Part shown: piece by piece, positions 3,039-61,720 of the stretch
Numbering within the stretch: position 1 is the first letter of the stretch
Layout: every line of letters begins with the position of its first letter
Source: a bacterium
GTDB lineage: Bacteria > 4484-113 > JAGGVC01
NCBI GenBank assembly: GCA_039961635.1
Contig: JABRWB010000012.1
Location: 22,273-86,272 of the forward strand
Direction: 5' to 3'
Length of the DNA stretch: 64,000 bases
The notes under the pieces: model-generated
Database searches by the model: none
What the model saw: the letters and a program-made list of their open reading frames with translations, nothing else
What the model was told of the DNA's origin: nothing
Position numbers and translations under genes: made by a program

Positions 3039-3130
3039 ACTTTCTTTTTCCCGGCCGACGGTTCAGTAATTACAACATCGGAGAATGCGCTTGTGCCGTT
3101 TCTAGCACGCTGGCTGCCCGGCCCGGCCTA

Positions 3131-3158
3131 TTGATTTGGCGGAGATAGGAATATAATC
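3131..3158 (+). promoter_or_regulatory. Sigma70-like promoter: -35 TTGATT (3131-3136), 16-nt spacer, -10 TATAAT (3153-3158), upstream of tdh.
   Basis: Hexamers read directly in an otherwise GC-rich intergenic region. Confidence 0.4.
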
Positions 3159-3211
3159 TGGCCTTGCCCGCCCGGGCCGAGTGCTCAATCCGGCGGGCCG
3201 GAGTACCGCTA

Positions 3212-4270
3212 ATGCCCGAAACGATGCTTGCCGCAGTGAAAGCCAAGCCCGCGCCCGGATGCGAGCTGATGGACGTCGCCATCCCCGCGCCCGTGGATAA
3301 CGAAGTGCTTATCAAGGTCGTGCGCACCTCCGTTTGCGGAACCGATCGTCACATATATACATGGGACGAGTGGGCGCAGGGGCGCATCAAGCCGCCGTTG
3401 GTATTCGGCCACGAGGGATGCGGCGAAATCGTCGCGGTCGGCCCAGGCGTGCGCTCGATGAAAGTCGGCGACTTCGTTTCGGCGGAGACACACATCCCCT
3501 GCGGTTTCTGCTTCCAGTGCCGCACCGGCAACCAGCACATCTGCAGCCATCTCACGATCCTCGGCGTTGACGTGGACGGCGTCTTCGCGCAGTACGCCAA
3601 GTTCCCGGAAACCGTCTGCTGGAAGAATCCGCCGGACATGAATCCCGACCACGCGAGCATCCTCGAACCTTTCGGCAACGCGTGCTACACGGTGATGGAG
3701 TCGCAAGTATCGGCGAAGGAAATCCTGATTACGGGCGACGGGCCGATCGCCGCGTTCGCCGCGGGCATCGCGCGCGCGGTGGGAGCGACCAAAATTATCG
3801 TAACGGGCCTTGTTGACTTCCTGCTGGAAATCTGCAAGCAAATGGGCGCGGATTACGTGATAAATGTCGGCAGGGAAAAAGATCCGAAGGCGTTTATCAT
3901 GGATCACACGGGCGGAGAGGGAGTGGATGTTGTGCTTGAAATGTCCGGAGCTCAAGCTGCGATAAACCTCGGCTTCAACGTGCTTAAAAAAGCGGGCACA
4001 TTCACCGCGTTCGGAATAAGCACGCAGGACGTTATTTCGTGGCCCATGAACAACGGCGTCGTCTTCAAGGGGGCGAAGATTCTGGGTATCAACGGCCGCA
4101 AGATGTTCGAGACGTGGTACCAGAGCCGCAACCTTCTTATGGCGGGGCGCGTGGACCCGTCTCCGGTCATCACGAACCGGTTCGCGCTGAAAGAAATAGA
4201 CGCGGCGCTGAAATCCATTTTTCTAGAAGGCCGCAGGGCCAGCAAGGTGACGATCGACCCGTGGGGGTAG
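3212..4270 (+). CDS. tdh: L-threonine 3-dehydrogenase (zinc-dependent MDR family).
   Basis: Strong resemblance to Tdh throughout: CGTDRHIYTWDEW, VFGHEGCGEIVAVG, GxGPIG-like Rossmann motif, RKMFETWY. Start at ATG 3212 (MPETM); the alternative ATG 3224 (MLAAVKAK) aligns to the canonical Tdh N-terminus. Confidence 0.85.
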   Translation: MPETMLAAVKAKPAPGCELMDVAIPAPVDNEVLIKVVRTSVCGTDRHIYTWDEWAQGRIKPPLVFGHEGCGEIVAVGPGVRSMKVGDFVSAETHIPCGFCFQCRTGNQHICSHLTILGVDVDGVFAQYAKFPETVCWKNPPDMNPDHASILEPFGNACYTVMESQVSAKEILITGDGPIAAFAAGIARAVGATKIIVTGLVDFLLEICKQMGADYVINVGREKDPKAFIMDHTGGEGVDVVLEMSGAQAAINLGFNVLKKAGTFTAFGISTQDVISWPMNNGVVFKGAKILGINGRKMFETWYQSRNLLMAGRVDPSPVITNRFALKEIDAALKSIFLEGRRASKVTIDPWG

Positions 4271-4431
4271 GGATTTGCATCGCACTAATTCCAACTGCTG
4301 TTTTATAGGCAAATTTCCGTTGCACTTCAATTTCACGGCATAAAGGCAAATTATCGGATATAATAAAGGTGGCGGCTCGATGGGGTTGTGCCGCCCTATC
4401 GGAGCGCACTTTGCGGGAAAGGGAGACCCGT

Positions 4432-7400
4432 ATGGGCAGGCTTCATTTTCGTTTTGCATATCATCGAAATTCGTTATTGCCGGCGGTTTTCCTTGCAATC
4501 GGCGCCGTCATTGTTTTTGCCAGTTGCCGTGCAGCCGGGCGGCTGTTCGATGCGTCCAATCCGTCGTCGCAACCTCAAAATCTCGTTCCGCCGGCCATTG
4601 AAAACTCGGACCCCGGCGCGCTCTTGGATGCAATATCGGAGATAAGCGAGTTCGAGGTACCGCAAGACGCCGATCCTCAAACCTTCGATATTTTGCGCGC
4701 AAAGCTCATTGAATTTGTTACATCCGCATCCTCCAGAAAATCGGGACTCCGCGAAGCATCCAGCGTGCCAAAGGCAGGATTCGGCGCGGTATCCGATCTC
4801 ATTTACGATGAAGAATCTGGCACGCTATCCTGGACTTATACGAATTGGGGCGATTACGACGGCAGCGGCGAAGTAAATGTGGCCGATATAACGCCGATAG
4901 CCATGTATTTCGGCTCGAAGGTGGAAGACGGCGCCGGATATCCGGAACTTAAAAGGTGGATCGACGGCGACGGCGATGGCGAAATAGGTGTTAGCGATAT
5001 CGTCCCGATCGCTTTGAATTACCTGGGCGAAGTTTGGGGCTACGCCGTGTTCGCGTCAGAAACCCGCGACGGAGCTTTTTCGGCCAAGCTTCCGGGAAGC
5101 GTTGAAACAACGACGGGGGCGGGCATCCCCAAGCGCTGTTCGTTCGAAGTTCCGGCGGAGGCAGGAAATTTTTTCGTGGTAAGGCCGCTCGACGGATCTG
5201 GTAATTATGGAGAGGCGAGCAACATTGCGCCAAAAGGAATCGAGCCGCGGGTTTTGTCCGTAACACCTACTTCGGGCGACCAGGGAAGCGTGGTAACGTT
5301 CGAGGCGCAGGTCGAAGGAAGCGAACCACTCACGTATTTTTGGGATTTCGGAGGCGCCGCACTGCCGAATAATGCGACCGACGCATCGCCTGAAGTCGTG
5401 CTGACTACATATGGTGATTTCCAGGCCACGCTTACTTTATCGAATGCACTCGGCTCCCATGCTTTCGAATTCCCCCTTTCGGTTGTGCCGGTCGGAACCG
5501 CGCCCGAAATACTTTGGGTGCTTCCCGAAACCGCGGTCGAGGGCGAATTCGTGCCGTTTATGCCGTTCGTTACCGGCTCCGCGCCGCTTTTGGCGGAGTG
5601 GGATTTCGGCGAAGGAGCTTCGCCACGGTACTCGAACGAAGCAGCGCCGCTTGTGATATGGGACGAGCCGGGCGATTACAGCGTGCATCTCAAGGTGTCG
5701 AATTATTTCGGCTCTGACGAGGTTGTCATTGTAATTCACATAATTCGCCAAGGAGTATCGCCGGTAGTTTTCGGCGCATCGCCAATAAAGGGGGCAGAAG
5801 GAGAAACGGTCAAGTTCATACCCTTGATTGGCGGCTCGTATCCGATGGACTTCAACTGGCAGTTCGGCGAGGCCGCAACTCCCTCTACAACAACCGACAG
5901 ATTCCCGGTGGTCACGCTGGGTCATCCGGGCAAGTACAGATGCGTTCTGACCGCGTCGAATTACTTCGGTACCGACGAAACGACTTTCGAATTAACTGTC
6001 ACCGACGGCGACGCGTATGGCAACTGGCCCCAGCCAGGCCGCTGGGCGACTCACCGGAGCAGGGCGGATGTGCCGGTTGCAGTGGACAGCGAGAATCCGC
6101 GGGCTGGGAGGATACTCGGATTGCCGGGCAAGGTGGATTCAAGCCCGATTGTGGACGAGTACGGCGCGGTTTATGTCGTTGTGGCGGACGAGTCCGCAGA
6201 TCCCCCGATTGACAGGTTTTGCGCTGCCAAACGGTCAGGCGATATCGAAGTGCTTTTCGAAGCCGTCGACATAATTGACGATCCTGTGATGGACGGCGAA
6301 GGCAGGATATTCCTGAAAGCGGGCGATGGAACGGAGTATTTCCTATATGCGATAGGCCGCGGCTATGGAAACTTGCTTTGGTCCAAGCCTATTGGCGGGG
6401 CGGCGCTTGGATTGGCTTGCACCAAAGATGGAAAAGTCGTTGCAGGAACTTCGATTCCGAACTCGGAACCTTCCGTAAAGTCCTATTGGAATACGGGAGA
6501 ACTCAGATGGTCGATTTCCGCAAAGTCGGAAGGGCCGGGAAGCATCGCTATTGCACCGGACGAAACCGCGTACATTTTTGGCGAAGATGGAATCAAGGCA
6601 TTTGGCTATGATTCGGGCGTTTCATGGTCAAAGTACTGGTCCTATTATGGGGATGGAGGCATATCTATCGGGTTGGGCGGGGAAGTTCTGCTTGCCGCGT
6701 GGCAAGAAAAACTTGTTGCCTTTGATCGTCTCGGCACGGAATTATGGCTAGGCGGGTTGACCGCATGCAGCGGGCCTCCGGCAGTCGGGATTGACGGCTC
6801 CGTATATTATGGAGTGTATCCCAATTACCTGGATTCAATTTCGCAAGAAGGTCAGCAATTGTGGAGCACGGAGTTCACCAATTTGGGGTGGTACGATGGC
6901 GAGGCCAACGGACCATTGATTTCAGCGCCGGCTATGGATTCAAACGGCACGCTGTATTTTCTTTTCTTCGGCCAGATCGATGACCAGAGTCAGGTAGTTT
7001 CCATATCCTCTACCGGAGAATTGCTTTGGGAGTATCCGGTCGGCTCGGTTCAAGTCCACCACAATCCCGCAATCAGCGCCGACGGCAGGCTTTTCGTACC
7101 CGCGGGCGATCTTTACGTTTTCGGCGGAGAAGTGACCGGTCCGCAGGCTGCGCTCGATGTCTCGGAATCAACTGGACAAGTCCCGTTTACGGTGACGCTC
7201 GATGCGTCGGGTAGCACTGACGAAGACGGCTCGTTGCTTACTTACGAATGGGATGTGGAAGGCGACGGCGTTTGGGATTTCAATTCGGGATACGCGCCGA
7301 AAGTCAGGCATACCTACACGCATCCGGGAAGCTATTCGCCGGTAGTCAAAGTGTCCGACGACGGTGAAAGCGATTATGCTCAAGCATCGGTTACTGCATC

Positions 7401-8469
7401 GCCAAGCATGCACGACAAGGAGTGGCACATAACGGTATTGGATTCCGGTTACAATGGCTACTATCGACCATCGATGATTGTGAGTGAGAACAAACCGGGC
7501 ATCGCTATTTCAAAATATGGCGTACTCTTTTATTTGTCGGCATTGGATCCGTATGGACAATCTTGGAATGCGCCAATCGATCCCGGTTTTTCAAATTTCG
7601 GCTTGGTTTTCACTGCATCGGAGATCCTTGGAAAACCTGCAATGGCATTCAGTTCCGACCTGTTCAACGATTACCTGGCTTATGCAACTGCCGAAGACCA
7701 GTCAGGTTTTGTTTGGAGCCCTCCCGTGTCGGTGGATTATCTTATGTATCATGATCCACTTGGTATTTCGTTGCAGGAAGTAAACGGGAATCCTGCAGCT
7801 GCTTTTTCGCGATTTGCGCGTGGCTTTTGGTTCATCCATGCAAACGACCCGGATGGAATATCTTGGGCAGCACCCGTTCAACTTGAGCCCGGGGGAATGA
7901 ACTACTGGGAATACTCGGTATCGTTGGTTGAAGCAGGTGGCAAACCTTGCGTTTTCTACGTCCATGACAACCAGCTAAAGGCAACCGTGGCTCTGGATGC
8001 CAACGGCGACGAATGGAATTCCTCTGTCACTCTCGATGATTTGGAACTAAACTATAGCGAAAACCGTGTAGTGGCAGCGATAGAAGTATCGGGTTGTCCT
8101 GCTGTTGTTTATTTCAATGGAAGCGGAATTTACTATATGCGCGCTTTGGATCCCGAAGGAACAAGTTGGGGCAATAGGGTATTCATAGATAATTCCAATT
8201 CGAATTTTTCGCCTTCGGCAGGAATTATTGGTGGAGTGCCTGCAATTGCATATGCACAACACTTGAATGTGCCAGGGATGTTCGACGGATGCGCGCTCGC
8301 CATCATTCGCGCCACCGATGCGGACGCTACCAGCTGGGGCGAGCCCGAAATCATCGACAGCCTGGGCGACGTTGGCCATTTCGCCTCCATCGCCGAAAAT
8401 TCCGTCGGGCCTTGCATCGCGTATCAGGATCGCACGAAACAGGCGCTGAAGTTCGCAATTTATTATTGA
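4432..8469 (+). CDS. Giant secreted lipoprotein with an N-terminal dockerin-like module, PQQ/BamB-like beta-propeller repeats, a PKD domain and C-terminal repeated propeller-like blades.
   Basis: ORF 4369..8469. Likely start MGRLHF... at 4432 with SD AAGGGAG. Signal peptide ends ...VIVFASC (lipobox). Dockerin-like pair GDYDGSGEVNVADITPIAMYFG / IDGDGDGEIGVSDIVPIALNYL. PKD-like segment VTLDASGSTDEDGSLLTYEWDVEGDGVWDF. Repeated blade-like segments with conserved W/G pattern in the C-terminal half. Confidence 0.75.
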   Translation: MGRLHFRFAYHRNSLLPAVFLAIGAVIVFASCRAAGRLFDASNPSSQPQNLVPPAIENSDPGALLDAISEISEFEVPQDADPQTFDILRAKLIEFVTSASSRKSGLREASSVPKAGFGAVSDLIYDEESGTLSWTYTNWGDYDGSGEVNVADITPIAMYFGSKVEDGAGYPELKRWIDGDGDGEIGVSDIVPIALNYLGEVWGYAVFASETRDGAFSAKLPGSVETTTGAGIPKRCSFEVPAEAGNFFVVRPLDGSGNYGEASNIAPKGIEPRVLSVTPTSGDQGSVVTFEAQVEGSEPLTYFWDFGGAALPNNATDASPEVVLTTYGDFQATLTLSNALGSHAFEFPLSVVPVGTAPEILWVLPETAVEGEFVPFMPFVTGSAPLLAEWDFGEGASPRYSNEAAPLVIWDEPGDYSVHLKVSNYFGSDEVVIVIHIIRQGVSPVVFGASPIKGAEGETVKFIPLIGGSYPMDFNWQFGEAATPSTTTDRFPVVTLGHPGKYRCVLTASNYFGTDETTFELTVTDGDAYGNWPQPGRWATHRSRADVPVAVDSENPRAGRILGLPGKVDSSPIVDEYGAVYVVVADESADPPIDRFCAAKRSGDIEVLFEAVDIIDDPVMDGEGRIFLKAGDGTEYFLYAIGRGYGNLLWSKPIGGAALGLACTKDGKVVAGTSIPNSEPSVKSYWNTGELRWSISAKSEGPGSIAIAPDETAYIFGEDGIKAFGYDSGVSWSKYWSYYGDGGISIGLGGEVLLAAWQEKLVAFDRLGTELWLGGLTACSGPPAVGIDGSVYYGVYPNYLDSISQEGQQLWSTEFTNLGWYDGEANGPLISAPAMDSNGTLYFLFFGQIDDQSQVVSISSTGELLWEYPVGSVQVHHNPAISADGRLFVPAGDLYVFGGEVTGPQAALDVSESTGQVPFTVTLDASGSTDEDGSLLTYEWDVEGDGVWDFNSGYAPKVRHTYTHPGSYSPVVKVSDDGESDYAQASVTASPSMHDKEWHITVLDSGYNGYYRPSMIVSENKPGIAISKYGVLFYLSALDPYGQSWNAPIDPGFSNFGLVFTASEILGKPAMAFSSDLFNDYLAYATAEDQSGFVWSPPVSVDYLMYHDPLGISLQEVNGNPAAAFSRFARGFWFIHANDPDGISWAAPVQLEPGGMNYWEYSVSLVEAGGKPCVFYVHDNQLKATVALDANGDEWNSSVTLDDLELNYSENRVVAAIEVSGCPAVVYFNGSGIYYMRALDPEGTSWGNRVFIDNSNSNFSPSAGIIGGVPAIAYAQHLNVPGMFDGCALAIIRATDADATSWGEPEIIDSLGDVGHFASIAENSVGPCIAYQDRTKQALKFAIYY

Positions 8470-8529
8470 TATCTATAGGGCCGCGACGAAACAGGTGCTT
8501 TCTAGCCGCACAAGTTTACGCGATCGAGA

Positions 8530-8558
8530 TTGACCGCGTTTGCCGCGAGTGCTATACT
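8530..8558 (+). promoter_or_regulatory. Sigma70-like promoter: -35 TTGACC (8530-8535), 17-nt spacer, -10 TATACT (8553-8558), driving the cobalamin riboswitch and btu operon.
   Basis: Near-consensus hexamers with ideal spacing immediately upstream of the riboswitch. Confidence 0.5.
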
Positions 8559-8564
8559 CCTCCC

Positions 8565-8790
8565 GTTCCGTCGGCGGGAAGCCGGTGCAAATCCGGCACG
8601 GACCAGCCACTGTGAGGCGGACTCCCCGGCACTACGCCATTGCCTTCGGGCGAGAAGGCGCCGGGCGGGGTTGAAACCGAGTCAGGAGACCGGGCGGAAA
8701 CTTCAGGGCTTCTCGGAGTAAGCCGCGATGGCTTTCGGCTTTCGCTGTTTCGGCATTGCGATATCTGTATCGGGTGCGCGGCCCGTGCGG
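8565..8790 (+). promoter_or_regulatory. Cobalamin (B12) riboswitch.
   Basis: Conserved core GGGAAGCCGGTGCAAATCCGGCACGGACCAGCCACTGTGA (8575-8615), including the B12 box GCCACTG. Located in the leader of an ABC importer and TonB receptor operon. Confidence 0.75.
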
Positions 8791-8792
8791 TT

Positions 8793-9683
8793 ATGCGCGC
8801 ACGTTCGCATTGCAATGCCCGGATGTGTTCCCGCTCCGAAGCCCGCCGGGGGTGCGGGCGTCTGAGCGCAAGAGCGGCGGTAAACGCAGCGGGAATTTCG
8901 TTCGGATACGACGGCGGGCGCGTGATTGACGGGCTGTCGCTGTCGGTCGCGCCGGGCGAGCTGGTCACGATTAGCGGGCCGAACGGGAGCGGGAAAACGA
9001 CTTTACTGAATCTGCTTTCGGGCGCGCTTGCGCCGGATTCGGGCACGGTCGAGATAAACGGCAAAGCGGTTGCGGATTTCAGCCGCCGGGAGCTTGCAAA
9101 GGCCGTCGCACTGATGCCGCAGTACCTTCCTTATTCGCCCTGGCTGACGGTGCGCGAGATTGTCGCGCTGGGGCGGTATCCGCATATGCCTGCGGCGTTT
9201 TCGCTGTGGGAGCGGGGCGATGACGCATCGGAAGGGAAAGTAGCGGAGGCGATGGAGAAGGCCGGAATTGCGCATCTCGCGGACCGGCTGTCGGGTGAAA
9301 TAAGCGGCGGTGAGCTGCGGCGGACGCACCTGGCACGGGTGCTTGCGCAGGGCGCTTCGATTGTATTGGCGGACGAGCCGACGGGCGATCTGGATTTGCA
9401 GCACGTCGGCGGGATGATAGCGACATTGCGCGGGCTCGCGGAGGGGGGGGCGGCGGTCGCGGCCGTCACGCATGATCTCAACTTCGCGCTGGCGCTCGGT
9501 GGCAGGCTGGTTCTGATGGCGCGCGGGAAAATTGCGGCAGACGGAATCGCGGACGAGATGCTGACGCAAGAGCGGCTTGCGTCGCTTTACGGCGGCGGAT
9601 TCAGAATCGAGGCGCTCGTTTCGGGGGGGAGGGCGGTGCTTCCCGCGTCTTCCGGCCAAGGATTGGAGGCGCATAATGGTTGA
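8793..9683 (+). CDS. btuD: ABC transporter ATP-binding protein (cobalamin/iron-siderophore import type).
   Basis: Walker A GPNGSGKTT, ABC signature LSGGELRR, Walker B ILLADEPT. In-frame ATGs at 8793 and 8823; the track start 8640 (TTG) lies inside the riboswitch. Symbol assigned by operon context only. Confidence 0.85.
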   Translation: MRARSHCNARMCSRSEARRGCGRLSARAAVNAAGISFGYDGGRVIDGLSLSVAPGELVTISGPNGSGKTTLLNLLSGALAPDSGTVEINGKAVADFSRRELAKAVALMPQYLPYSPWLTVREIVALGRYPHMPAAFSLWERGDDASEGKVAEAMEKAGIAHLADRLSGEISGGELRRTHLARVLAQGASIVLADEPTGDLDLQHVGGMIATLRGLAEGGAAVAAVTHDLNFALALGGRLVLMARGKIAADGIADEMLTQERLASLYGGGFRIEALVSGGRAVLPASSGQGLEAHNG

Positions 9684-10713
9684 GAGATACCGCGGACGGC
9701 GGACGGCATACTTTGCGTTTTGCTTCTGGGCGGTTGTGTTCGTCCTGCTGATCGCGCTGCCGTATCTGCGCCAGGCGTACTCGACGTTTTCACGCATACC
9801 CGAAAACAAGAACGCCGGAATCGAATCCCCGGCGGCGAAAAGCGATGCCGAATGGCCTCTGACCAAATTCGACGCACTGGGACGCGAAGTGACATTGGCG
9901 AAACCGCCGGAGCGCATCGTATCGCTCTCTCCCGCGATTACGGAAACGGTATTTGCGCTCGGCGCGGGGGGGAGGCTCGTGGGCCGCTCGGATTTCTGCA
10001 ACTATCCTCCTGAAGTTGCATACATAAAATCAATTGGTGGATTGCTCAACCCGTCGCTTGAAGACATCGTTCTTCTTCAACCGGATCTGGTGTTCGTGCA
10101 GAAGGTCAGCCCGAGGGAAATCGTGGAGAGGCTGGGGGAGGCGGGCGTCGCGGTTTTTGCGGTCGATGAGGCGACATCTCTCAATGGCGTTTTGGAGACG
10201 ATCCGGATAATCGGAATTATGTGCGCAAGCCGCGATAATGCGATTCGGCTTGAATTCGAAAAATCGGCGCTTATGGCGGAGTATAAGTCGCGCAGACGCG
10301 CGCACGCATGGCGCGTGTATTTCGGAGGAGTCGAAGCGCCGTACTACACGGCGGGAGAGGGCACGTTTATAGACGACCTGATTTCACTTGCGGGCGCCAG
10401 GAACATCGCGAGCGGGGAGGGAAGAGAACGGAAATCGTCGCAGGGATGGCCGCAGCTTTCGCCGGAGGAAATAGCCTCCGCGGATCCGGAGGTTATACTC
10501 GTCGGGCATTCTCCGCTCGTCGCGGGGAAAGATGCAACGGATTCCATTCTTTCCGCGGCGCGCAAAAATCCGGCGTTCCGAAACACCTCCGCCGTGAAAT
10601 ACGGACGGATTTGCGTAATAGATCAGGACGAGCTGCTGCGTCCGGGACCGCGCATTTTCAACGCGCTCGAAAAGTTCTCCGCATATCTCGACGGACTGGA
10701 GGATGTCGAGTGA
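9676..10713 (+). CDS. btuF: Periplasmic substrate-binding protein, BtuF/FhuD class (cluster A-2).
   Basis: ATG 9676 preceded by GGAGG; the track start 9577 is a 5' over-extension. N-terminal TM/signal FAFCFWAVVFVLLIAL. PBP motifs IVSLSPAITETVFALGAGGRLVGRSDFCNYP and LQPDLVFV. Overlaps the btuD stop by 8 nt. Confidence 0.85.
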   Translation: MVERYRGRRTAYFAFCFWAVVFVLLIALPYLRQAYSTFSRIPENKNAGIESPAAKSDAEWPLTKFDALGREVTLAKPPERIVSLSPAITETVFALGAGGRLVGRSDFCNYPPEVAYIKSIGGLLNPSLEDIVLLQPDLVFVQKVSPREIVERLGEAGVAVFAVDEATSLNGVLETIRIIGIMCASRDNAIRLEFEKSALMAEYKSRRRAHAWRVYFGGVEAPYYTAGEGTFIDDLISLAGARNIASGEGRERKSSQGWPQLSPEEIASADPEVILVGHSPLVAGKDATDSILSAARKNPAFRNTSAVKYGRICVIDQDELLRPGPRIFNALEKFSAYLDGLEDVE

Positions 10714-11741
10714 CCTCCCCCCCTATTAAAGAGAACGCGAATTCCAGAGATGCGAGGCTTGTGCGGCTTCTTGCAATCGCGCTCACCCTTCTCGCACTCG
10801 GATTGGTTCTTTCGTTGGCCGCGGGAAAGGAGTATGTCAATCCGATATCGCTGTTTACGGGCGCATATTCCGATGACGCCCACCGTAAGGCGCTTTCGAC
10901 GATAGTATGGTCGCTAAGACTTCCCCGCGCGCTCGGCGCGGGGCTTATCGGAATGTCGCTCGCGCTTTCGGGGCTTTTGTTACAGGCGTATTTCCGCAAT
11001 CCGCTTGCCGATCCGTTCATCTTGGGAGTGTCCAGCGGCGCGGCGCTCGGCGCGGCCGTAAAAATTATTTTCTTGCCGAATATTCCGATTCCCCTTCCGG
11101 TGTTCGCGCTCGCGGGCGGGTTCGCGCTTGTGTCCGGAGTATGGCTTATCGCCAGAGGCGTACGGGGAGATGAGACCGTTACGCTGCTGCTTTCCGGAGT
11201 CGCCTTATCGCTTCTTGCGGGAAGCCTTTTGAGCGTGCTCGTTTTGTGGGGCAGGCCTGGCGAAGTGGGGCTTGTGATGCGTTGGCTGATGGGCTCGCTC
11301 GCGGGCGTCGGATATCGCGAGGTCGCGTGGCTTGCCGCGGGCGCGGTTGCGGGGCTTGCGATTTCGCTTGCGCTTTCGCGCGAACTCAATGCGATTCTTT
11401 TGGGCAAAACCGTCGCGCAGAGCATCGGCGTGGACGTGCGCGCGGTGCGGCTGTGGGTCGTGGGCGCGGCGACCGCGCTGGCCGCGCTGGCGGTTTCCGC
11501 CGCGGGAATCGTGGGTTTCGTCGGCCTGGTCGTACCGCATATCGCTCGGTTGATCGTGGGGGGGGGCGCGCGGCGGCTCGTTCCGGTGGCCGCCGCGATC
11601 GGAGCATCGGCGCTTGTGTGGTGCGACTTGGGCGCGCGCGCGGCTCTCCCCTCGGGCGAGCTGCCGATAGGAGCGGCGACCGCGATTATGGGCGTTCCGT
11701 TTTTTCTTTGGCTGATGCGCAGGGGGAGGTATTTGGGATGA
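10710..11741 (+). CDS. btuC: ABC transporter permease, FecCD/BtuC family.
   Basis: GTG 10710 overlaps the btuF stop (GTGA). FecCD motifs LGAGLIGMSLALSGLLLQAYFRNPLADPFILGVSSGAALGAAV. Multiple TM helices. The track start 10308 is an over-extension. Confidence 0.85.
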   Translation: MTSPPIKENANSRDARLVRLLAIALTLLALGLVLSLAAGKEYVNPISLFTGAYSDDAHRKALSTIVWSLRLPRALGAGLIGMSLALSGLLLQAYFRNPLADPFILGVSSGAALGAAVKIIFLPNIPIPLPVFALAGGFALVSGVWLIARGVRGDETVTLLLSGVALSLLAGSLLSVLVLWGRPGEVGLVMRWLMGSLAGVGYREVAWLAAGAVAGLAISLALSRELNAILLGKTVAQSIGVDVRAVRLWVVGAATALAALAVSAAGIVGFVGLVVPHIARLIVGGGARRLVPVAAAIGASALVWCDLGARAALPSGELPIGAATAIMGVPFFLWLMRRGRYLG

Positions 11742-13642
11742 TTTTCCGGCTGCTTGCCGCTATTTGGTTGATACTTTCGCTAAATGCCGCGTGGATCGGG
11801 GCGGCCGAATGCCAAGATGAAGGTTCGGGCGGAAATTCCGAATCTGCCGCCGAAGCCGATTCGGGGCGGGACGATTCCGAAGAAATCGAAGTCGGCGAAG
11901 TGGAGGTTGAAGGCGAGAAACCCGCGTCCGCGGAATCGCTGCCCGGCGAGGATTTTTTGTTGATTGACATCGAGGATTTCTTGATTCCCGGAGAGTCGCT
12001 CGGCGATGTCCTTGATACGCTCGGGGGCGTCGAAGTGCGCGGCCTGGGGGGGGGACTGGATATGACGACGTTTTCGATCCGCGGCGCGGGCGCGCACCAA
12101 ACCGATATTCTGCTTGAAGGCGCGCCGCTTTCGCCCGCGACCGGCGGCGTTTTCGACCTCTCGCTGTTGCCGGCTTGGTTTGTGCAATCCGCTCTCGTCA
12201 CCCGCGGCCCAGGCTCGATAGGCGGGAAAGCGCTCGCGGGAGAACTGGATTTGCGCCTGGCGAACGATACAGGAACTTCATTTTGCTCCGGCCGCGGCAG
12301 TTTCGGGACTTATTCCGCGATGATGAGGGGCGGATGGAACGCAGGAAATTCGAATTTTGTCATGGCCATTGGCTATGATTCTGCGGACGGCGATTTCACC
12401 TACGGGCGGCGCGACGGGAAAACCTACACGCGCTCGAACAACGAACGCGAGCGCGTTGCGGTCGCGCTGTCTTGGCAAACCAAAAACGCCGCGCGGGACG
12501 ATTCCGCATTTTTGCTGGCCGCCGACCGCTCCGGCGGTGTGCCGGGGCTGTCGGAATTTCCGACGCCTTCGGCGCACCAGGACGACACGCTTTTTCTCGC
12601 CGGTTTTTCCTCGACGGACAAATCGTTTGAAAAGGGCGAGTTGACGTGGACCGGCTACTCGCGCGTCCAACACACGGGCTTCGGCGATCCTTCGCCTTAT
12701 CTTGGAAACGCGGTGTATGCTGATCAATCCGAATACGCCGCCGGCGCCGCGGTATCGTTCAGGCGTCCGTCGGGGGGGGGTATCTTCGGTGCAAAAATAT
12801 CTATCGATGGAGCGGTTCTTTCCGACGATTCCTACGGGAATCCTGAACGGAGAACAATCGCCGCGACTCTATGGCGCGAGTTTTACGCCGGCAAGGCGGC
12901 TTTTTCCGCCGCACTGTCCGGGGAGGCGGCGAGCGACGGCCCCGTCGGCTGGCGCGGCAAACTGGGAATGGAGCGTAAACTGGGTGCGGGATTGTCATTA
13001 GCGGGCAGCGCGGCGCGCTCGTTCAGACGGCCCGATTTCGCGGAGCTTTATTATCCCGAATCGGGATTCATCGGCGGCAACCCGGAGCTTTTCCCGGAAA
13101 CCGGATACACGTTCGATTTCGGCCCGCGATTTCGAGGAAGCAAGTTGGATGCTTCACTTGTCGGATTTATCCACCGGTTTTCGGAATCGATCGAATTCGT
13201 GCCCGTATCCGCATACCGGCTTCGCGCGGAAAACACGGGGGGGGTGCGAAGCCGGGGCGTATCGCTGGACATACAAGCGGCTCCCGCGGACGGATGGAAG
13301 CTGGACGGCTCATTCACATTCCTTGACGCGGAATACCTGGACGGCGGACTTCCGCTTGCGGGGAGGTCTCCGCGCAAATGGAGTGTCGGCATATCGCGCG
13401 AGTCCGCCAACTGGCAAGTGTCGGCTTCATTCCTTCACCGCTCTTCCACGCCCGTCGACAGATTCGGCTCGCTGTATGTGGGCGCGGCCGGCGATTTGTC
13501 CGCGGCTCTTGTTTTCAGGCCCGATGATTCCTGGCGGATTTCGGTGTCGGGATTCAACCTGCTCGACGAAGATATCCGGGACAGCCTGGATTTCCCCCGG
13601 CCCGGCCGCTCGTTTTTTCTTTCGGTAAATCGCGAGGTGTAG
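11738..13642 (+). CDS. btuB: TonB-dependent outer-membrane receptor, BtuB-like.
   Basis: ATG 11738 overlaps the btuC stop (ATGA) with SD GGGGGAGG. Signal peptide MIFRLLAAIWLILSLNAAWIGAA. Plug-domain motifs VEVRGLGGGLDMTTFSIRGAGAHQTDILLEGAPLSP and VTRGPGSIGGKALAGELDL. The barrel C-terminus ends ...FFLSVNREV, not the usual aromatic residue. Confidence 0.8.
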   Translation: MIFRLLAAIWLILSLNAAWIGAAECQDEGSGGNSESAAEADSGRDDSEEIEVGEVEVEGEKPASAESLPGEDFLLIDIEDFLIPGESLGDVLDTLGGVEVRGLGGGLDMTTFSIRGAGAHQTDILLEGAPLSPATGGVFDLSLLPAWFVQSALVTRGPGSIGGKALAGELDLRLANDTGTSFCSGRGSFGTYSAMMRGGWNAGNSNFVMAIGYDSADGDFTYGRRDGKTYTRSNNERERVAVALSWQTKNAARDDSAFLLAADRSGGVPGLSEFPTPSAHQDDTLFLAGFSSTDKSFEKGELTWTGYSRVQHTGFGDPSPYLGNAVYADQSEYAAGAAVSFRRPSGGGIFGAKISIDGAVLSDDSYGNPERRTIAATLWREFYAGKAAFSAALSGEAASDGPVGWRGKLGMERKLGAGLSLAGSAARSFRRPDFAELYYPESGFIGGNPELFPETGYTFDFGPRFRGSKLDASLVGFIHRFSESIEFVPVSAYRLRAENTGGVRSRGVSLDIQAAPADGWKLDGSFTFLDAEYLDGGLPLAGRSPRKWSVGISRESANWQVSASFLHRSSTPVDRFGSLYVGAAGDLSAALVFRPDDSWRISVSGFNLLDEDIRDSLDFPRPGRSFFLSVNREV

Positions 13643-13690
13643 TGTCCGCATCTTTCCAGATGCAAAGTGAATAATCTCGGAGGTTAGGAA

Positions 13691-14914
13691 ATGAAGAAGA
13701 ATGTTGTTATCAATATGTTCATTGCAACGGCGGCGTCGCTGGCCATACTGATTGCATCCGGATGCGGAGGCGGCTCCGGTTCCGCAAATCCGCCGCTGCC
13801 GCCCGGAACCAACAAGGTCACTCCGGCCGAGCTTCAGGCCGCGCTTAAAAAGGGGTTTTTCACGACCGGAAGCGCGCCGTCCAGATTCGAGGCGCGGGGC
13901 GCCGAAATATACACGCTCAACTCACTTTCGAACACGATGACCGTCAATTCCGCGTACGACGGCGCCGCGGTGCGCACGATTTCGTTTCCGGTCGGCGCCG
14001 GGCCGTTCGATTTGGAATGGGTCGGAGATGCCTGTTACATCTGTGCTAACGGCACGAACGCGGTTTACCGCTACCGGGCCGGGCAGGACGCTGTTGACGG
14101 CGAGTCTGTTTCGCTCGCATTAGGTGGTCTTGAAGCGCTTGCGTACATCGGCCCGGGAGAAATGGCAGCGTACGGCGGAAAACTGTACGTCCCCATTTCG
14201 GGGATAGTTTCGTTTGGTGACCCATCGAGCGGAATAGAAGCCGAGTACGCGCCCGGAAGAATCGCTGTGTTAGACCTTGCGGCTTTCGCATTCGAGCGTT
14301 TTATAAATGTTCCGTTTGTGAATCCGACCGCGGCCTACACATCGCCCGACGGAATTATCTATTTCGTTTGCACCGGCGAAAGCCAGTTCACCGCGGAATA
14401 CGAGGCCTATGCCGGCAGCGAGGGCGGAATTGTCGCGTTCAATCCAGCATCCGGCCAGGTCGTTTATTCTCTGTCGCTCGGCGAAACGCTGCCGGGCACG
14501 ATTATTCTGGTCAATCAGGATGTCGCCTACGTGGGAAGCAACCTGAAGGCAGAGGTGTACCGGGTGCGGCTGGATACGGGCATCGTTCAGCGCGGCCCGG
14601 ACAACCCTATCGTTCTCACGCAGGAATTCAGCTTCGTGTCGGGATTTGCAGGTCTTCCCGGCCTCGGCGTTCTGGCGGGAAGCTTCAACACCGACGAGGT
14701 GTTCTTCATCGATCCGAACGACGACGGCGTCGGCAAATCACCCTTTACGCAGCCGTTCGATTTCGGAGAAAGCGATACTTTCTTCGGCGGCGTCCAGGAT
14801 GTCTTGTATTTCCGGGAAAATGAAAAGCACAAGATTTTCGTGTTGCAGGGAATCGCCAACAAGGTCGGTGCGGTTGACCTTACGCAACTGTGGAACAGGA
14901 TTCGGCTTGAATAG
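13691..14914 (+). CDS. Surface lipoprotein, beta-propeller-like, hypothetical; last gene of the btu cluster.
   Basis: Lipobox LAILIASGC followed by a GGGSGS linker. Repeated blade-like segments (YTL..., VYRYRA, LYVPISG, IYFVCTG, VVYSLSLG, AYVGSN, VYRVRL). SD GGAGG before ATG 13691. Confidence 0.6.
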   Translation: MKKNVVINMFIATAASLAILIASGCGGGSGSANPPLPPGTNKVTPAELQAALKKGFFTTGSAPSRFEARGAEIYTLNSLSNTMTVNSAYDGAAVRTISFPVGAGPFDLEWVGDACYICANGTNAVYRYRAGQDAVDGESVSLALGGLEALAYIGPGEMAAYGGKLYVPISGIVSFGDPSSGIEAEYAPGRIAVLDLAAFAFERFINVPFVNPTAAYTSPDGIIYFVCTGESQFTAEYEAYAGSEGGIVAFNPASGQVVYSLSLGETLPGTIILVNQDVAYVGSNLKAEVYRVRLDTGIVQRGPDNPIVLTQEFSFVSGFAGLPGLGVLAGSFNTDEVFFIDPNDDGVGKSPFTQPFDFGESDTFFGGVQDVLYFRENEKHKIFVLQGIANKVGAVDLTQLWNRIRLE

Positions 14915-14988
14915 CTCCCATGTTCCTGTTTTGCAATTAACGCGGTTTTTGGGCTAATATCGGCCGTCTAAATCCGCAAGGAAGACAG

Positions 14989-15462
14989 ATGGCCGAATTA
15001 TTCGTGAAGTACGCGCCGCTTTGGGCAGCGCTGTTTTCATGGGTTCTCGCCCAGTGCATAAAGCTGGTGATTTCGCTCGTTCAGGAAGGGCGTATCAACG
15101 TCGCCAAGCTTATCGACACGGGAGGCATGCCCTCTTCGCACAGCGCGCTCGTCGCGAGCATTTGCACCAGCGTGGGGCTGATCCGCGGCTGGGACAGCAT
15201 CGAGTTCGCTATCACAGCTGTGTTCACCGCAATCGTTTTGTACGACGCCACCGGAATCAGGCGCAGCGCCGGGGAGCATGCGGCGGCGCTGAACGACATC
15301 ATTCCGCAGCTTCTTGCGGGCAAGTTCTTAAAGCCCGACACCAAGTTCCGCGAGGAATACCGGGAGCTTTTGGGCCACAATCCCGCGGAAGTCGTGGTGG
15401 GCTCGATACTGGGCGCAATCGTCACATTGCTGTTTCTCTACGGCTACGGGGTGGTTCGATAA
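14989..15462 (+). CDS. DUF212 / divergent PAP2 (YuiD-like) membrane protein.
   Basis: Hallmark GGMPSSHSALV motif and hydrophobic helices; about 157 aa. Confidence 0.75.
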   Translation: MAELFVKYAPLWAALFSWVLAQCIKLVISLVQEGRINVAKLIDTGGMPSSHSALVASICTSVGLIRGWDSIEFAITAVFTAIVLYDATGIRRSAGEHAAALNDIIPQLLAGKFLKPDTKFREEYRELLGHNPAEVVVGSILGAIVTLLFLYGYGVVR

Positions 15463-15495
15463 TCCGTGCGCGGGTATCTGCGCCGCCCGATTGAA

Positions 15496-16272
15496 ATGAA
15501 TGTGGACAATCTGGCGCAACTCCTGGTTACGAACGGGGCCGCGGATGATTTGAAGGCGGCCCGAATGCTGATTCGCAGGGGCAGGGTGACGGTAAACGGA
15601 AAAAACGCGTACGACGAGGAAATGCCGGTCAATCCGGATGCCGCAATAAAGGCTCTTTGCAAACCGGGCGAGTGGGCGAGCCGCGGAGGATTGAAGCTGG
15701 AAGCGGCACTGCTGCATTTCGGAGTATCGCCCGCGGACAAGGTCTGCCTGGATCTAGGCTGCTCGACGGGGGGGTTCACCGACGTGCTGCTGGCTTACGG
15801 CGCGGCGAAAGTGCATGCTGTTGACGTGGGATACGGAGTTTTGGACTGGGTGTTGCGAAATCATCCCAGGGTGGCCGTTCACGAAAGGACAAATGCAAGG
15901 TTTCTTACGGCTGAACAGGTGGGCGAATCGGTTGATTTGATCACGGCAGATCTCAATCACATTTCGCTTGCGGTTGCGCTGCCCGCTCCGGCGAAGCTAT
16001 TGGTCGAAGGAGGCGCGGTACTGGCGCTGGTCAAACCCCAATTCGAAATCCCGAAACAGTGGTGCGTCCAGCCGGATTGGCAAGGCGGAGTGGTCAAGGG
16101 CGATGCGCTTAGAAAACGGATTCTGGATTACTCGGTGGAAAGGCTGGAACGCGAGGGGTTGTCTTGTCAAGGGCTGTTCGAATGTCCGGTTGCCGGCCAC
16201 AAAGGAAACCGCGAATATTTCGCGCTTCTCAAGCCCGCTTTGGCTCATGCTGGAAAACCCCCGGTGATATGA
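15496..16272 (+). CDS. tlyA: rRNA (cytidine-2'-O)-methyltransferase TlyA (hemolysin A family).
   Basis: S4 RNA-binding start MNVDNLAQLLVTNGAADDLKAARMLIRRGRVTVNG, then an FtsJ-type MTase with LDLGCSTGGFTDVLL. The track start 15466 is also possible. Confidence 0.85.
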   Translation: MNVDNLAQLLVTNGAADDLKAARMLIRRGRVTVNGKNAYDEEMPVNPDAAIKALCKPGEWASRGGLKLEAALLHFGVSPADKVCLDLGCSTGGFTDVLLAYGAAKVHAVDVGYGVLDWVLRNHPRVAVHERTNARFLTAEQVGESVDLITADLNHISLAVALPAPAKLLVEGGAVLALVKPQFEIPKQWCVQPDWQGGVVKGDALRKRILDYSVERLEREGLSCQGLFECPVAGHKGNREYFALLKPALAHAGKPPVI

Positions 16273-61361: not shown

Positions 61362-61375
61362 TGGTACAAACACAA

Positions 61376-61720
61376 TGGAGGTGGGGGGAATCGAACCCCC
61401 GTCCGAACGGGCACCCGGGACGGCGTCTACGGCGGTAGTCTGCGGATTAATCTTAACGCCCTTCGGAAGCCGCAAACGACACCTCCGGGCGGGCAGCCCT
61501 TAATCTTTCGCGGATGCCGGGCGTTCTCCGCGGCATCCCCTGGATCTGGCCGCGCATCCGAGCCCCAGGGGCCCGGCGCGGTGCGCGGTCGTCGCTATGT
61601 TAAGCGGCGAGAGCGAAATCGCGGTTGGCGATTATGTTTTGCTGGGGTTGTTGACCCGGCGTCCAGCCGCCGGGCGTCGCAGCCGATCGTGCATCCCATC
61701 CGTCGAATCCATACACCCCC
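61376..61720 (-). ncRNA. ssrA: Transfer-messenger RNA (tmRNA, ssrA).
   Basis: Minus-strand 5' end GGGGGTGTATGGATTCGACGG... (complement of 61720 downward). Tag ORF ...GCCAACCGCGATTTCGCTCTCGCCGCTTAA = ANRDFALAA* (around 61601-61630). 3' tRNA-like end GGACGGGGGTTCGATTCCCCCCACCTCCA with encoded CCA (complement of 61376-61378). Confidence 0.85.

Follow-up and report, generated by a model that had tools for sequence, protein, structure and literature searches.

A cobalamin riboswitch, an overlapping leader open reading frame and a gene for a predicted β-propeller lipoprotein in a probable corrinoid uptake operon

How might a cobalamin riboswitch govern an uptake operon when the start codon that follows its regulated hairpin does not open the first transporter gene? 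This question is raised by a locus within a 64,000-nucleotide stretch of bacterial DNA (contig JABRWB010000012.1, positions 22,273 to 86,272; hereafter the window), in which a promoter and a riboswitch aptamer precede genes for an ATP-binding cassette (ABC) ATPase, a periplasmic binding protein, a permease and a TonB-dependent receptor. An earlier note, made from the sequence, had described these elements as a complete, riboswitch-controlled and translationally coupled btu operon of four genes. The control and coupling architecture of that description stands. The regulated Shine-Dalgarno (SD) sequence and start codon, however, belong to a 45-codon leader open reading frame (ORF), and a fifth gene, for a β-propeller lipoprotein, travels with the receptor gene in every relative, so the four-gene operon is not complete. 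We consider it probable that the locus is a B12-repressed corrinoid uptake operon in which six reading frames, that of the lipoprotein included, form a relay.

Relatives of the locus were gathered from public assemblies by using the protein encoded 3′ of the receptor, the lipoprotein, as the query. Close relatives (L001/L002/L008, L003/L004/L006, L005 and L007) show 53-58% identity in this protein, and distant relatives (L009, L010, L011 and L013) show 28-33%. Two further loci, L012 and L015, carry stand-alone copies of the lipoprotein gene, and in L014 and L016 the receptor and propeller genes are again adjacent. Counts that concern the leader ORF refer to eight operon loci, namely the window together with L001, L003, L005, L009, L010, L011 and L013; L010 and L011 are closely related and are to be counted once. 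Independent assemblies match the window exactly at the points checked, which are the receptor end and the CTG at position 8862.

The candidate sigma-70-type promoter (Table 1) carries TG at 8550-8551, an extended -10 element, and is the sole sigma-70-like site in 8300-15600. Shuffled sequence yields 2.4±1.6 such sites, and the match by itself is therefore not beyond chance. The call is credible because the positions of its elements are conserved across related loci: a TAnnnT hexamer lies 16-19 nucleotides (nt) 5′ of the aptamer block GGGAAG in 10 of 10 related loci (TG-extended in nine of them), and TTGAC is found 17 nt further 5′ of the hexamer in four close loci. Transcription would then start at about 8563-8566, so that the Rfam match would begin with ~16 nt, lying over the -10 element, that are probably untranscribed promoter DNA. 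The aptamer itself is matched over the full RF00174 model with a score of 85.5 bits, above the gathering score of 31.5 bits. The same family heads the cluster, at 87-103 bits, in every locus that extends far enough upstream, and it occupies the same position in L001, L003, L005, L006, L008-L013 and L015. Core blocks GGGAAG, GCCACUG and AGGAGACC are invariant over nine aligned loci. The promoter and the B12 riboswitch with its box had both been proposed in the earlier note, along with an Rfam scan as the check, and each is borne out.

Directly 3′ of the aptamer lies a P13-like hairpin whose loop holds an SD sequence. The pattern GCUUCU(N)GGAG...AGC is kept in 10 of 10 loci, and a start codon always follows GGAG at a distance of 6-9 nt. 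In this class of riboswitch, a kissing loop between L5 and L13 that hides the ribosome-binding site is an established mechanism. In the distant loci the hairpin loop CUGG is exactly complementary to CCAG of L5, and it is this complementarity that suggests a putative kissing loop between 8602-8606 and 8707-8724 in the window. An intrinsic terminator was also considered as the expression platform and was rejected, as none was found in a search of 8700-8870. Folded as a whole, the leader does not exceed shuffled sequences in stability (z 0.44).

In all eight operon loci, the start codon after the regulated hairpin opens a leader ORF of 18-58 codons and not the ATPase gene. The leader peptides are unrelated to each other, and the DNA from the hairpin to the ATPase gene cannot be aligned among loci. 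Nevertheless, the stop codon of the leader ORF overlaps the ATPase start by 4-11 nt in seven of seven relatives, either as ATGA or GTGA or through an overlap of 8 or 11 nt. As a measure of chance, each leader was shuffled, and we counted how often the first in-frame stop lay between -3 and +12 nt relative to the ATPase start. This test gives P values of 0.02-0.09 per locus, with a product of 2.5e-11 over the eight loci, or of ~6e-10 without the window, whose ATPase start was picked afterwards.

The leaders also harbour a second hairpin. In most related loci, ViennaRNA predicts that the SD sequence of the ATPase gene is buried in a stable hairpin ending 2-5 nt 5′ of the ATPase start, as seen for CUCCGGG-N7-CCCGGAG in L009 and GCUCCGGU-N4-ACCGGAGC in L013; the L003 leader folds otherwise, with a longer, different stem. 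The predicted hairpin of the window contains the purine-rich, SD-like stretch of its ATPase gene. The best match to the N-termini of orthologues is obtained if the ATPase gene starts with CTG at 8862-8864, which overlaps the leader stop as CTGA and is also present in an independent assembly. The resulting N-terminus, (M)SARAAVNAAGISFGYDG, has the same length as that of L001, MSDSAPAIEARDLSFGYDG. Canonical in-frame starts exist only at ATG 8823 and ATG 8793, 40 and 70 nt inside the leader ORF. No ATG, GTG or TTG is found in the ATPase frame between 8823 and 8922, and use of GTG 8922 would remove the first strand of the ATPase fold. Gene callers choose ATG 8793, ~70 nt into the leader ORF (296 amino acids; window 8793-9683, corresponding to L018 1103-1993). 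The leader ORF is called as a 55-amino-acid gene in L005 and is unannotated in the other loci. In these genomes, automatic annotation places the ATPase start wrongly and in most cases overlooks the leader ORF.

From these features a route of control can be proposed. The TG-extended promoter would start RNA at the base of the cobalamin riboswitch. When B12 is bound, L5 would pair with the loop of the 8707-8724 hairpin, and GGAG and ATG 8728 would be hidden from ribosomes. When B12 is absent, ribosomes would translate the 45-codon leader, whose peptide itself would be of no consequence, and their passage would melt the 8841-8859 hairpin that masks the ribosome-binding site of the ATPase gene. 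For these ribosomes, termination would occur at TGA 8863-8865, over the start codon of the ATPase gene (CTG 8862, with ATG 8823 as a possible alternative), and ATPase translation would follow through unfolding of the hairpin, termination-reinitiation or both. Without leader translation, the hairpin would stay closed and no terminating ribosome would reach the ATPase start. Overlapping stop and start codons would then carry translation through the binding protein, the permease and the receptor, and the propeller lipoprotein encoded by the fifth gene would bind corrinoids and work with the receptor as BtuG does in Bacteroides. The architecture itself is present in eight loci, and the predicted SD-masking hairpins suggest that ATPase translation would depend on translation of the leader.

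Pfam domains agree with the order ATPase, binding protein, permease and receptor that had been read from the sequence (for the ATPase, ABC_tran PF00005, 111 bits), and the three overlaps reported with it are present as described. The ATG at 9676 precedes the ATPase stop at 9681-9683 for an overlap of 8 nt, the binding-protein and permease genes meet in GTGA at 10710-10713, and the permease and receptor genes meet in ATGA at 11738-11741. A GGAGG-type SD sequence lies 6-8 nt 5′ of each of these junction starts. It had further been noted that mechanically derived ORFs over-extend, and indeed the longest ones, starting at 8640, 9577, 10308 and 11246, enter the riboswitch or the preceding gene. The FecCD permease, the ABC ATPase and the class III (Peripla_BP_2) binder are encoded together here, as expected of a type II ABC importer of the BtuCD-F kind.

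NCBIfam models for the importer proteins place the permease nearest to BtuC, with scores of 215 bits against a cutoff of 461 and 210 bits against a cutoff of 334. The ATPase reaches 106 bits with the BtuD model (cutoff 281) and 184 bits with a corrinoid ATPase model (cutoff 537), and its best model is a haem ABC ATPase at 205 bits, below cutoff. On the binding protein, the BtuF model scores 73.6 bits against a cutoff of 234, and PDB neighbours comprise haem and iron binders together with BtuF, the iron and haem binders being on top. A separation of corrinoid from haem transport by the sequence of the binding protein or the ATPase was attempted and rejected, as the two cannot be told apart in this way. 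The N-terminus of the binding protein (window 9676-9800, + strand; MVERYRGRRTAYFAFCFWAVVFVLLIALPYL) shows an Arg-Arg motif, then a long hydrophobic stretch, and no obvious signal-peptidase site or lipobox; the protein may be exported by the twin-arginine translocation pathway or anchored in the membrane, and thus not be free in the periplasm.

The receptor is laid out as a signal peptide, an acidic disordered linker, a TonB-box-like motif EIEVGEVEVEGEK, a plug and a barrel. Its linker, of low complexity, spans approximately residues 24-66 (window 11807-11935, + strand) with predicted local distance difference test (pLDDT) values below 50. The motif is kept in close orthologues, in which the preceding linker differs in length. 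All nine of the best PDB sequence matches are BtuB proteins, led by three from Bacteroides thetaiotaomicron (E about 1e-13) before Escherichia coli BtuB. An AlphaFold2 model (pLDDT 85.4) comprises a plug and a long barrel of antiparallel strands, and its top 16 Foldseek matches in the PDB are likewise all BtuB, with PqqU, Cir and siderophore receptors lower. These include E. coli BtuB (1nqg, E 3.7e-33, TMq 0.76) and 8bmx_A (TMq 0.80). The best NCBIfam model is TonB-B12, and TIGR01779, the BtuB equivalog, scores 68.3 bits against a cutoff of 599.7. The receptor is a very distant relative of BtuB.

An unusual receptor C-terminus, ...NREV, had also been pointed out, with the advice to check for a possible frameshift near 13600-13642. 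The ending is as described: the protein closes with ...SVNREV* at 13642, without the aromatic residue of the β-signal. Close orthologues end in ...KYSW, ...GYRW or ...KFSW and distant ones in ...RTEL, ...RSEL, ...RSDL, ...NTQL or ...ETKL; the window's ...VNREV aligns without gaps, with Val in place of Trp or Leu. The frameshift was checked and rejected. We regard the end as real because the protein has the length of its orthologues, the other two frames are no better, assemblies from three separate sequencing runs are identical here, and distant orthologues end in Leu. Non-aromatic ends occur commonly among receptors of this family, and that of the window is hydrophobic.

The fifth gene begins 48 nt after the receptor stop and shares its reading frame, with stops between the two. 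Its product carries the lipobox LIASG-C25, whose Cys is invariant in 14 homologues, followed by a Gly/Pro-rich linker. An AlphaFold model (pLDDT 90.3, predicted template modelling score 0.85) is an all-β propeller, and we predict that the protein is a seven-bladed β-propeller of the YVTN/YncE type. The family comprises 13 clusters in a word-indexed profile search. An exhaustive hidden Markov model (HMM) search of 1.84 billion proteins finds ~22 representatives of full length at 50% clustering, beyond which HMM matches grade into generic YVTN repeat proteins. When the model was compared with the PDB by Foldseek, B12-binding lipoproteins of Bacteroides came first and accounted for 11 of the top 20 matches, the leaders being BtuG2 (8ptf, 2e-13), BtuG1 (8ptd), 8blw_B and BT1954. 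With the family profile against PDB sequences, BtuG2/BtuG1 (E 5e-5) are second to an archaeal YVTN propeller (3e-8). As far as sequence profile and model tell, the lipoprotein belongs to the same fold class as BtuG and has the same type of repeat. We do not file it as a member of the BtuG family because it falls outside the sequence homology by which membership is assigned (BlastP; Wexler et al., 2018).

These structural and sequence comparisons are not in full agreement. The genomic placement of the gene provides stronger evidence and links it to the receptor and to B12. A propeller gene lies 3′ of the receptor gene in every relative down to 25% identity despite changing flanks (the window, L001-L011, L013, L014 and L016). 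In L009, L010 and L011 the lipoprotein ATG overlaps the receptor stop as ATGA, and in L013 the gap is 10 nt. L012 and L015, whose lipoproteins are 61% identical to each other, have the gene outside the operon, isolated on a 2.7-Mb contig with unrelated genes of opposite orientation on either side. There a cobalamin riboswitch lies directly 5′, and the ATG that follows its hairpin and GGAG is the start codon of the lipoprotein gene. That stand-alone copies possess their own B12 riboswitch indicates that the lipoprotein gene is itself B12-related. By analogy with BtuG, the protein probably binds corrinoids and passes them to the receptor, a role for which surface exposure and contact with the receptor would be expected.

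Distant homologues carry an extra ~60-100 residues between lipobox and propeller, a segment that the window protein is without. The propeller homologue of L014 has 648 amino acids, an ordinary signal peptide without a lipobox and a different N-terminal region, and is encoded in the order permease, ATPase, receptor, propeller. A gene for DUF212, a divergent PAP2 phosphatase family, neighbours the operon in two arrangements. Close relatives have it just downstream on the same strand, whereas L009 and L013 have it in divergent orientation immediately 5′ of the riboswitch. The gene may have a linked function, such as that of a phosphatase in corrinoid salvage, or its presence may be a coincidence. 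No convincing terminator was found after 14914, and read-through into the DUF212 gene is possible.

Table 1. Positions of the operon elements in the window, of their counterparts in related loci and of neighbouring features.
Locus	Feature	Positions	Strand	Details
Window	Candidate sigma-70-type promoter	8530-8558	+	-35 TTGACC 8530-8535; 17-nt spacer; -10 TATACT 8553-8558
Window	Cobalamin riboswitch aptamer, RF00174	8547-8712	+	Rfam, 85.5 bits, E 1.1e-19, full model 1-189
Window	L5 loop ACCAG	8602-8606	+	CCAG part at 8603-8606
Window	B12 box GCCACUG (DNA GCCACTG)	8606-8612	+	Sequence reading
Window	P13-like hairpin GGCUU-CUCGGAGU-AAGCC	8707-8724	+	Directly 3′ of aptamer; loop holds SD GGAG 8715-8718
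Window	Leader ORF, 45 codons	8728-8865	+	ATG 8728, TGA 8863-8865; frame differs from ATPase
Window	Predicted SD-masking hairpin GCCCGCC-GGGG-GUGCGGGC	8841-8859	+	ViennaRNA; inside leader ORF, ends 2 nt 5′ of CTG 8862
Window	ABC ATPase (BtuD-like)	8862-9683	+	Start CTG 8862 or ATG 8823; TGA 9681-9683
Window	Periplasmic binding protein (BtuF/haem-binding class)	9676-10713	+	Peripla_BP_2 PF01497, 112 bits
Window	FecCD permease (BtuC-like)	10710-11741	+	PF01032, 281 bits
Window	BtuB-like TonB-dependent receptor, 634 amino acids	11738-13642	+	Plug PF07715, barrel PF00593 (Pfam)
Window	Lipoprotein, 407 amino acids	13691-14914	+	GGAGG 7 nt 5′ of ATG; 48 nt after receptor stop
L001	Leader ORF, 53 codons	5101-5262		ATPase ATG 5252; 11-nt overlap
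L003	Leader ORF, 58 codons	4972-5148		ATPase GTG 5145; GTGA overlap
L005	Leader ORF, 55 codons	5112-5279		ATPase ATG 5272; 8-nt overlap
L009	Leader ORF, 21 codons	4963-5028		ATPase ATG 5018; 11-nt overlap
L010	Leader ORF, 18 codons	4875-4931		ATPase ATG 4928; ATGA overlap
L011	Leader ORF, 18 codons	4872-4928		ATPase ATG 4925; ATGA overlap
L013	Leader ORF, 20 codons	4901-4963		ATPase ATG 4953; 11-nt overlap
L009	Lipoprotein homologue with extra segment	9653-11071		
L010	Lipoprotein homologue with extra segment	9683-11077		
L011	Lipoprotein homologue with extra segment	9680-11074		
L012	Lipoprotein homologue with extra segment	9605-11029		Stand-alone gene
L013	Lipoprotein homologue with extra segment	9632-11038		
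L015	Lipoprotein homologue with extra segment	10001-11419		Stand-alone gene
L014	Propeller homologue without lipobox	3077-5023		3′ of receptor gene
Window	DUF212	14989-15462	+	
L009	DUF212	4306-4743	-	
L013	DUF212	4206-4634	-	
Window	Protein with PKD and immunoglobulin-like repeats, 1366 amino acids	4369-8469	+	Stops 60 nt 5′ of operon -35
Window	tmRNA gene, full length	61373-61720	-	RF00023, 130 bits, E 1.4e-50

The leader ORF could instead be untranslated or irrelevant, with control exerted through transcription termination, Rho polarity or independent initiation at the ATPase gene. The ATPase genes do own SD-like sequences, DNA of 55-70% G+C often contains open frames of 18-58 codons, and Rho-dependent effects are known for other translational riboswitches. 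However, an SD sequence and start codon placed straight after the regulated hairpin are kept in all loci, and the leader stop falls on the ATPase start throughout even though the sequences cannot be aligned. The SD-like sequences of the ATPase genes are themselves buried in predicted hairpins inside the leader ORF, the search for an intrinsic terminator was negative, and Rho polarity would add to leader translation rather than replace it. We therefore judge an irrelevant leader to be improbable. Far more improbable still is that the transporter imports haem or an iron chelate, even though the top-scoring ATPase model and the leading PDB neighbours of the binding protein point in that direction. 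Such matches say little because BtuF and the haem binders form one closely related class. Every related locus has a cobalamin riboswitch 5′ of the cluster, the permease scores best with BtuC models, and the best PDB matches of the receptor are exclusively BtuB by both sequence and fold. The corrinoid assignment thus stands on the riboswitch and the receptor, not on the ABC models, and corrinoid uptake is by far the likeliest function. Of the two outcomes that the earlier note had named as fatal to its corrinoid reading, the absence of an Rfam cobalamin match and a siderophore or haem specificity, neither was found.

More weight must be given to the possibility that the lipoprotein is a mere syntenic neighbour, a periplasmic-side protein or an unrelated enzyme, and not a surface-exposed B12-binding partner of the receptor. 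Genes for DUF212, FtsJ and NAD kinase further downstream are also syntenic in close relatives, where adjacency could thus be inherited. The fold is that of a generic YVTN/YncE propeller, membership in BtuG is not seen at the level of sequence, and we know of no surface-export signal for this lineage. Yet the pairing with the receptor persists at 25-33% identity where the flanks differ, the start and stop codons of the two genes overlap in L009-L011, and the copies outside the operon keep their own cobalamin riboswitch, a tie to B12 that is independent of neighbours. We consider the neighbour explanation unlikely on balance, and note that a periplasmic, B12-related role may also be compatible with the genomic evidence. 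In its most specific form, that this propeller lipoprotein family is a corrinoid-capturing partner of BtuB in a Planctomycetota-like lineage, produced under a conserved relay that runs from the riboswitch through the leader ORF and its hairpin, our proposal is a tentative one, which we hold at slightly less than even confidence.

Several observations weigh against the proposed operon and its relay. All loci derive from metagenome assemblies. In the window, the codon on the leader stop is CTG, which is rare as a start, and the sole canonical alternative cited, ATG 8823, sits 40 nt inside the leader ORF. The loop of the window's subgroup reads CU(C)GG, such that L5-L13 pairing needs one bulged base, and the hairpin stems differ among loci only by U-A/U-G changes, with no compensatory covariation seen. 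All ABC components miss the NCBIfam equivalog cutoffs and are equally near to haem and Btu systems. Pfam yields no match for the lipoprotein, NCBIfam yields none above cutoff, and a BtuG2 fragment compared with the 150 nearest representatives of the family matched generic YVTN repeat proteins only, with no bridging sequences.

Two further features of the window lie apart from the operon. The gene for a protein with PKD and immunoglobulin-like repeats that precedes the promoter is not kept in relatives, unlike the genes downstream, and a full-length tmRNA gene is encoded on the opposite strand.

How does this locus compare with systems that are already known? In E. coli and Salmonella, Btu proteins (btuB with a riboswitch, btuCED and btuF) provide the same four functions, the cobalamin riboswitch likewise acts on translation initiation, as we infer here, and the receptor fold of the window is closest to E. 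coli BtuB. The window differs in having one riboswitch-headed operon with the order ATPase, binder, permease and receptor, overlapping junctions, a leader ORF before the first gene and a lipoprotein gene, and its proteins are too diverged for any NCBIfam Btu equivalog cutoff. Riboswitch-controlled btu clusters are already known, and the four-gene part is a new, very diverged member.

The most unusual part is the lipoprotein, a concrete candidate for B12 binding. A riboswitch locus in which a BtuB gene is followed by the gene for a seven-bladed propeller lipoprotein is known from Bacteroides thetaiotaomicron BtuB-BtuG (PMC6143338, PMC10404256; PDB 8bmx, 8blw, 8p97), and the window has the same arrangement. 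YncE/YVTN seven-bladed propellers (PDB 3vgz, 1l0q, 3bws), in contrast, are not lipoproteins of B12 loci, and none is linked to a TonB-dependent receptor or a cobalamin riboswitch. We regard the window protein as a probable counterpart of BtuG from Bacteroides, in bacteria that appear to be Planctomycetota-like. To our knowledge, surface lipoproteins are essentially unstudied in that phylum, and our literature search for BtuG together with Planctomycetota found nothing. BtuG homologues have been described as exclusive to Bacteroidetes (PMC6143338), receptor-lid pairs as occurring almost only in Bacteroidota (bioRxiv 10.1101/2023.03.17.533168), and BtuG-type lids on TonB-dependent receptors are treated as confined to that phylum (PMC6143338, PMC10404256, bioRxiv 10.1101/2023.03.17.533168). 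If our proposal is true, B12 uptake assisted by a lipoprotein in the manner of BtuB-BtuG extends beyond Bacteroidota, having arisen or persisted elsewhere.

The closest precedent for the relay is the ppe2 riboswitch of Mycobacterium tuberculosis, where the L13 hairpin, which pairs with L5, contains the SD sequence of an upstream ORF, uPPE2 (Kipkorir et al., NAR 2024, PMC11260477). There uPPE2 and ppe2 share AUGA, and PPE2 requires translation of the upstream ORF, mainly through termination-reinitiation (PMC11260477). Judged by sequence, the window and its relatives have the identical architecture, with the SD sequence in the hairpin and the leader stop on the start of the first gene. The operon, the phylum and the leader peptide are different, the window leader is without a polyproline stretch or conservation, its lineage has an extra hairpin predicted to mask the downstream SD sequence, and the overlap codon of the window is CTG and not ATG. 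The leader-ORF relay would thus be a second, independent case of a design shown only in M. tuberculosis, conserved in a deep, unrelated lineage, which suggests that the pairing of a riboswitch with a leader ORF is a general solution. Such a design frees the switch and the first gene from each other's sequence constraints. Both the relay and the lipoprotein offer testable leads for research on riboswitch mechanism and B12 uptake.

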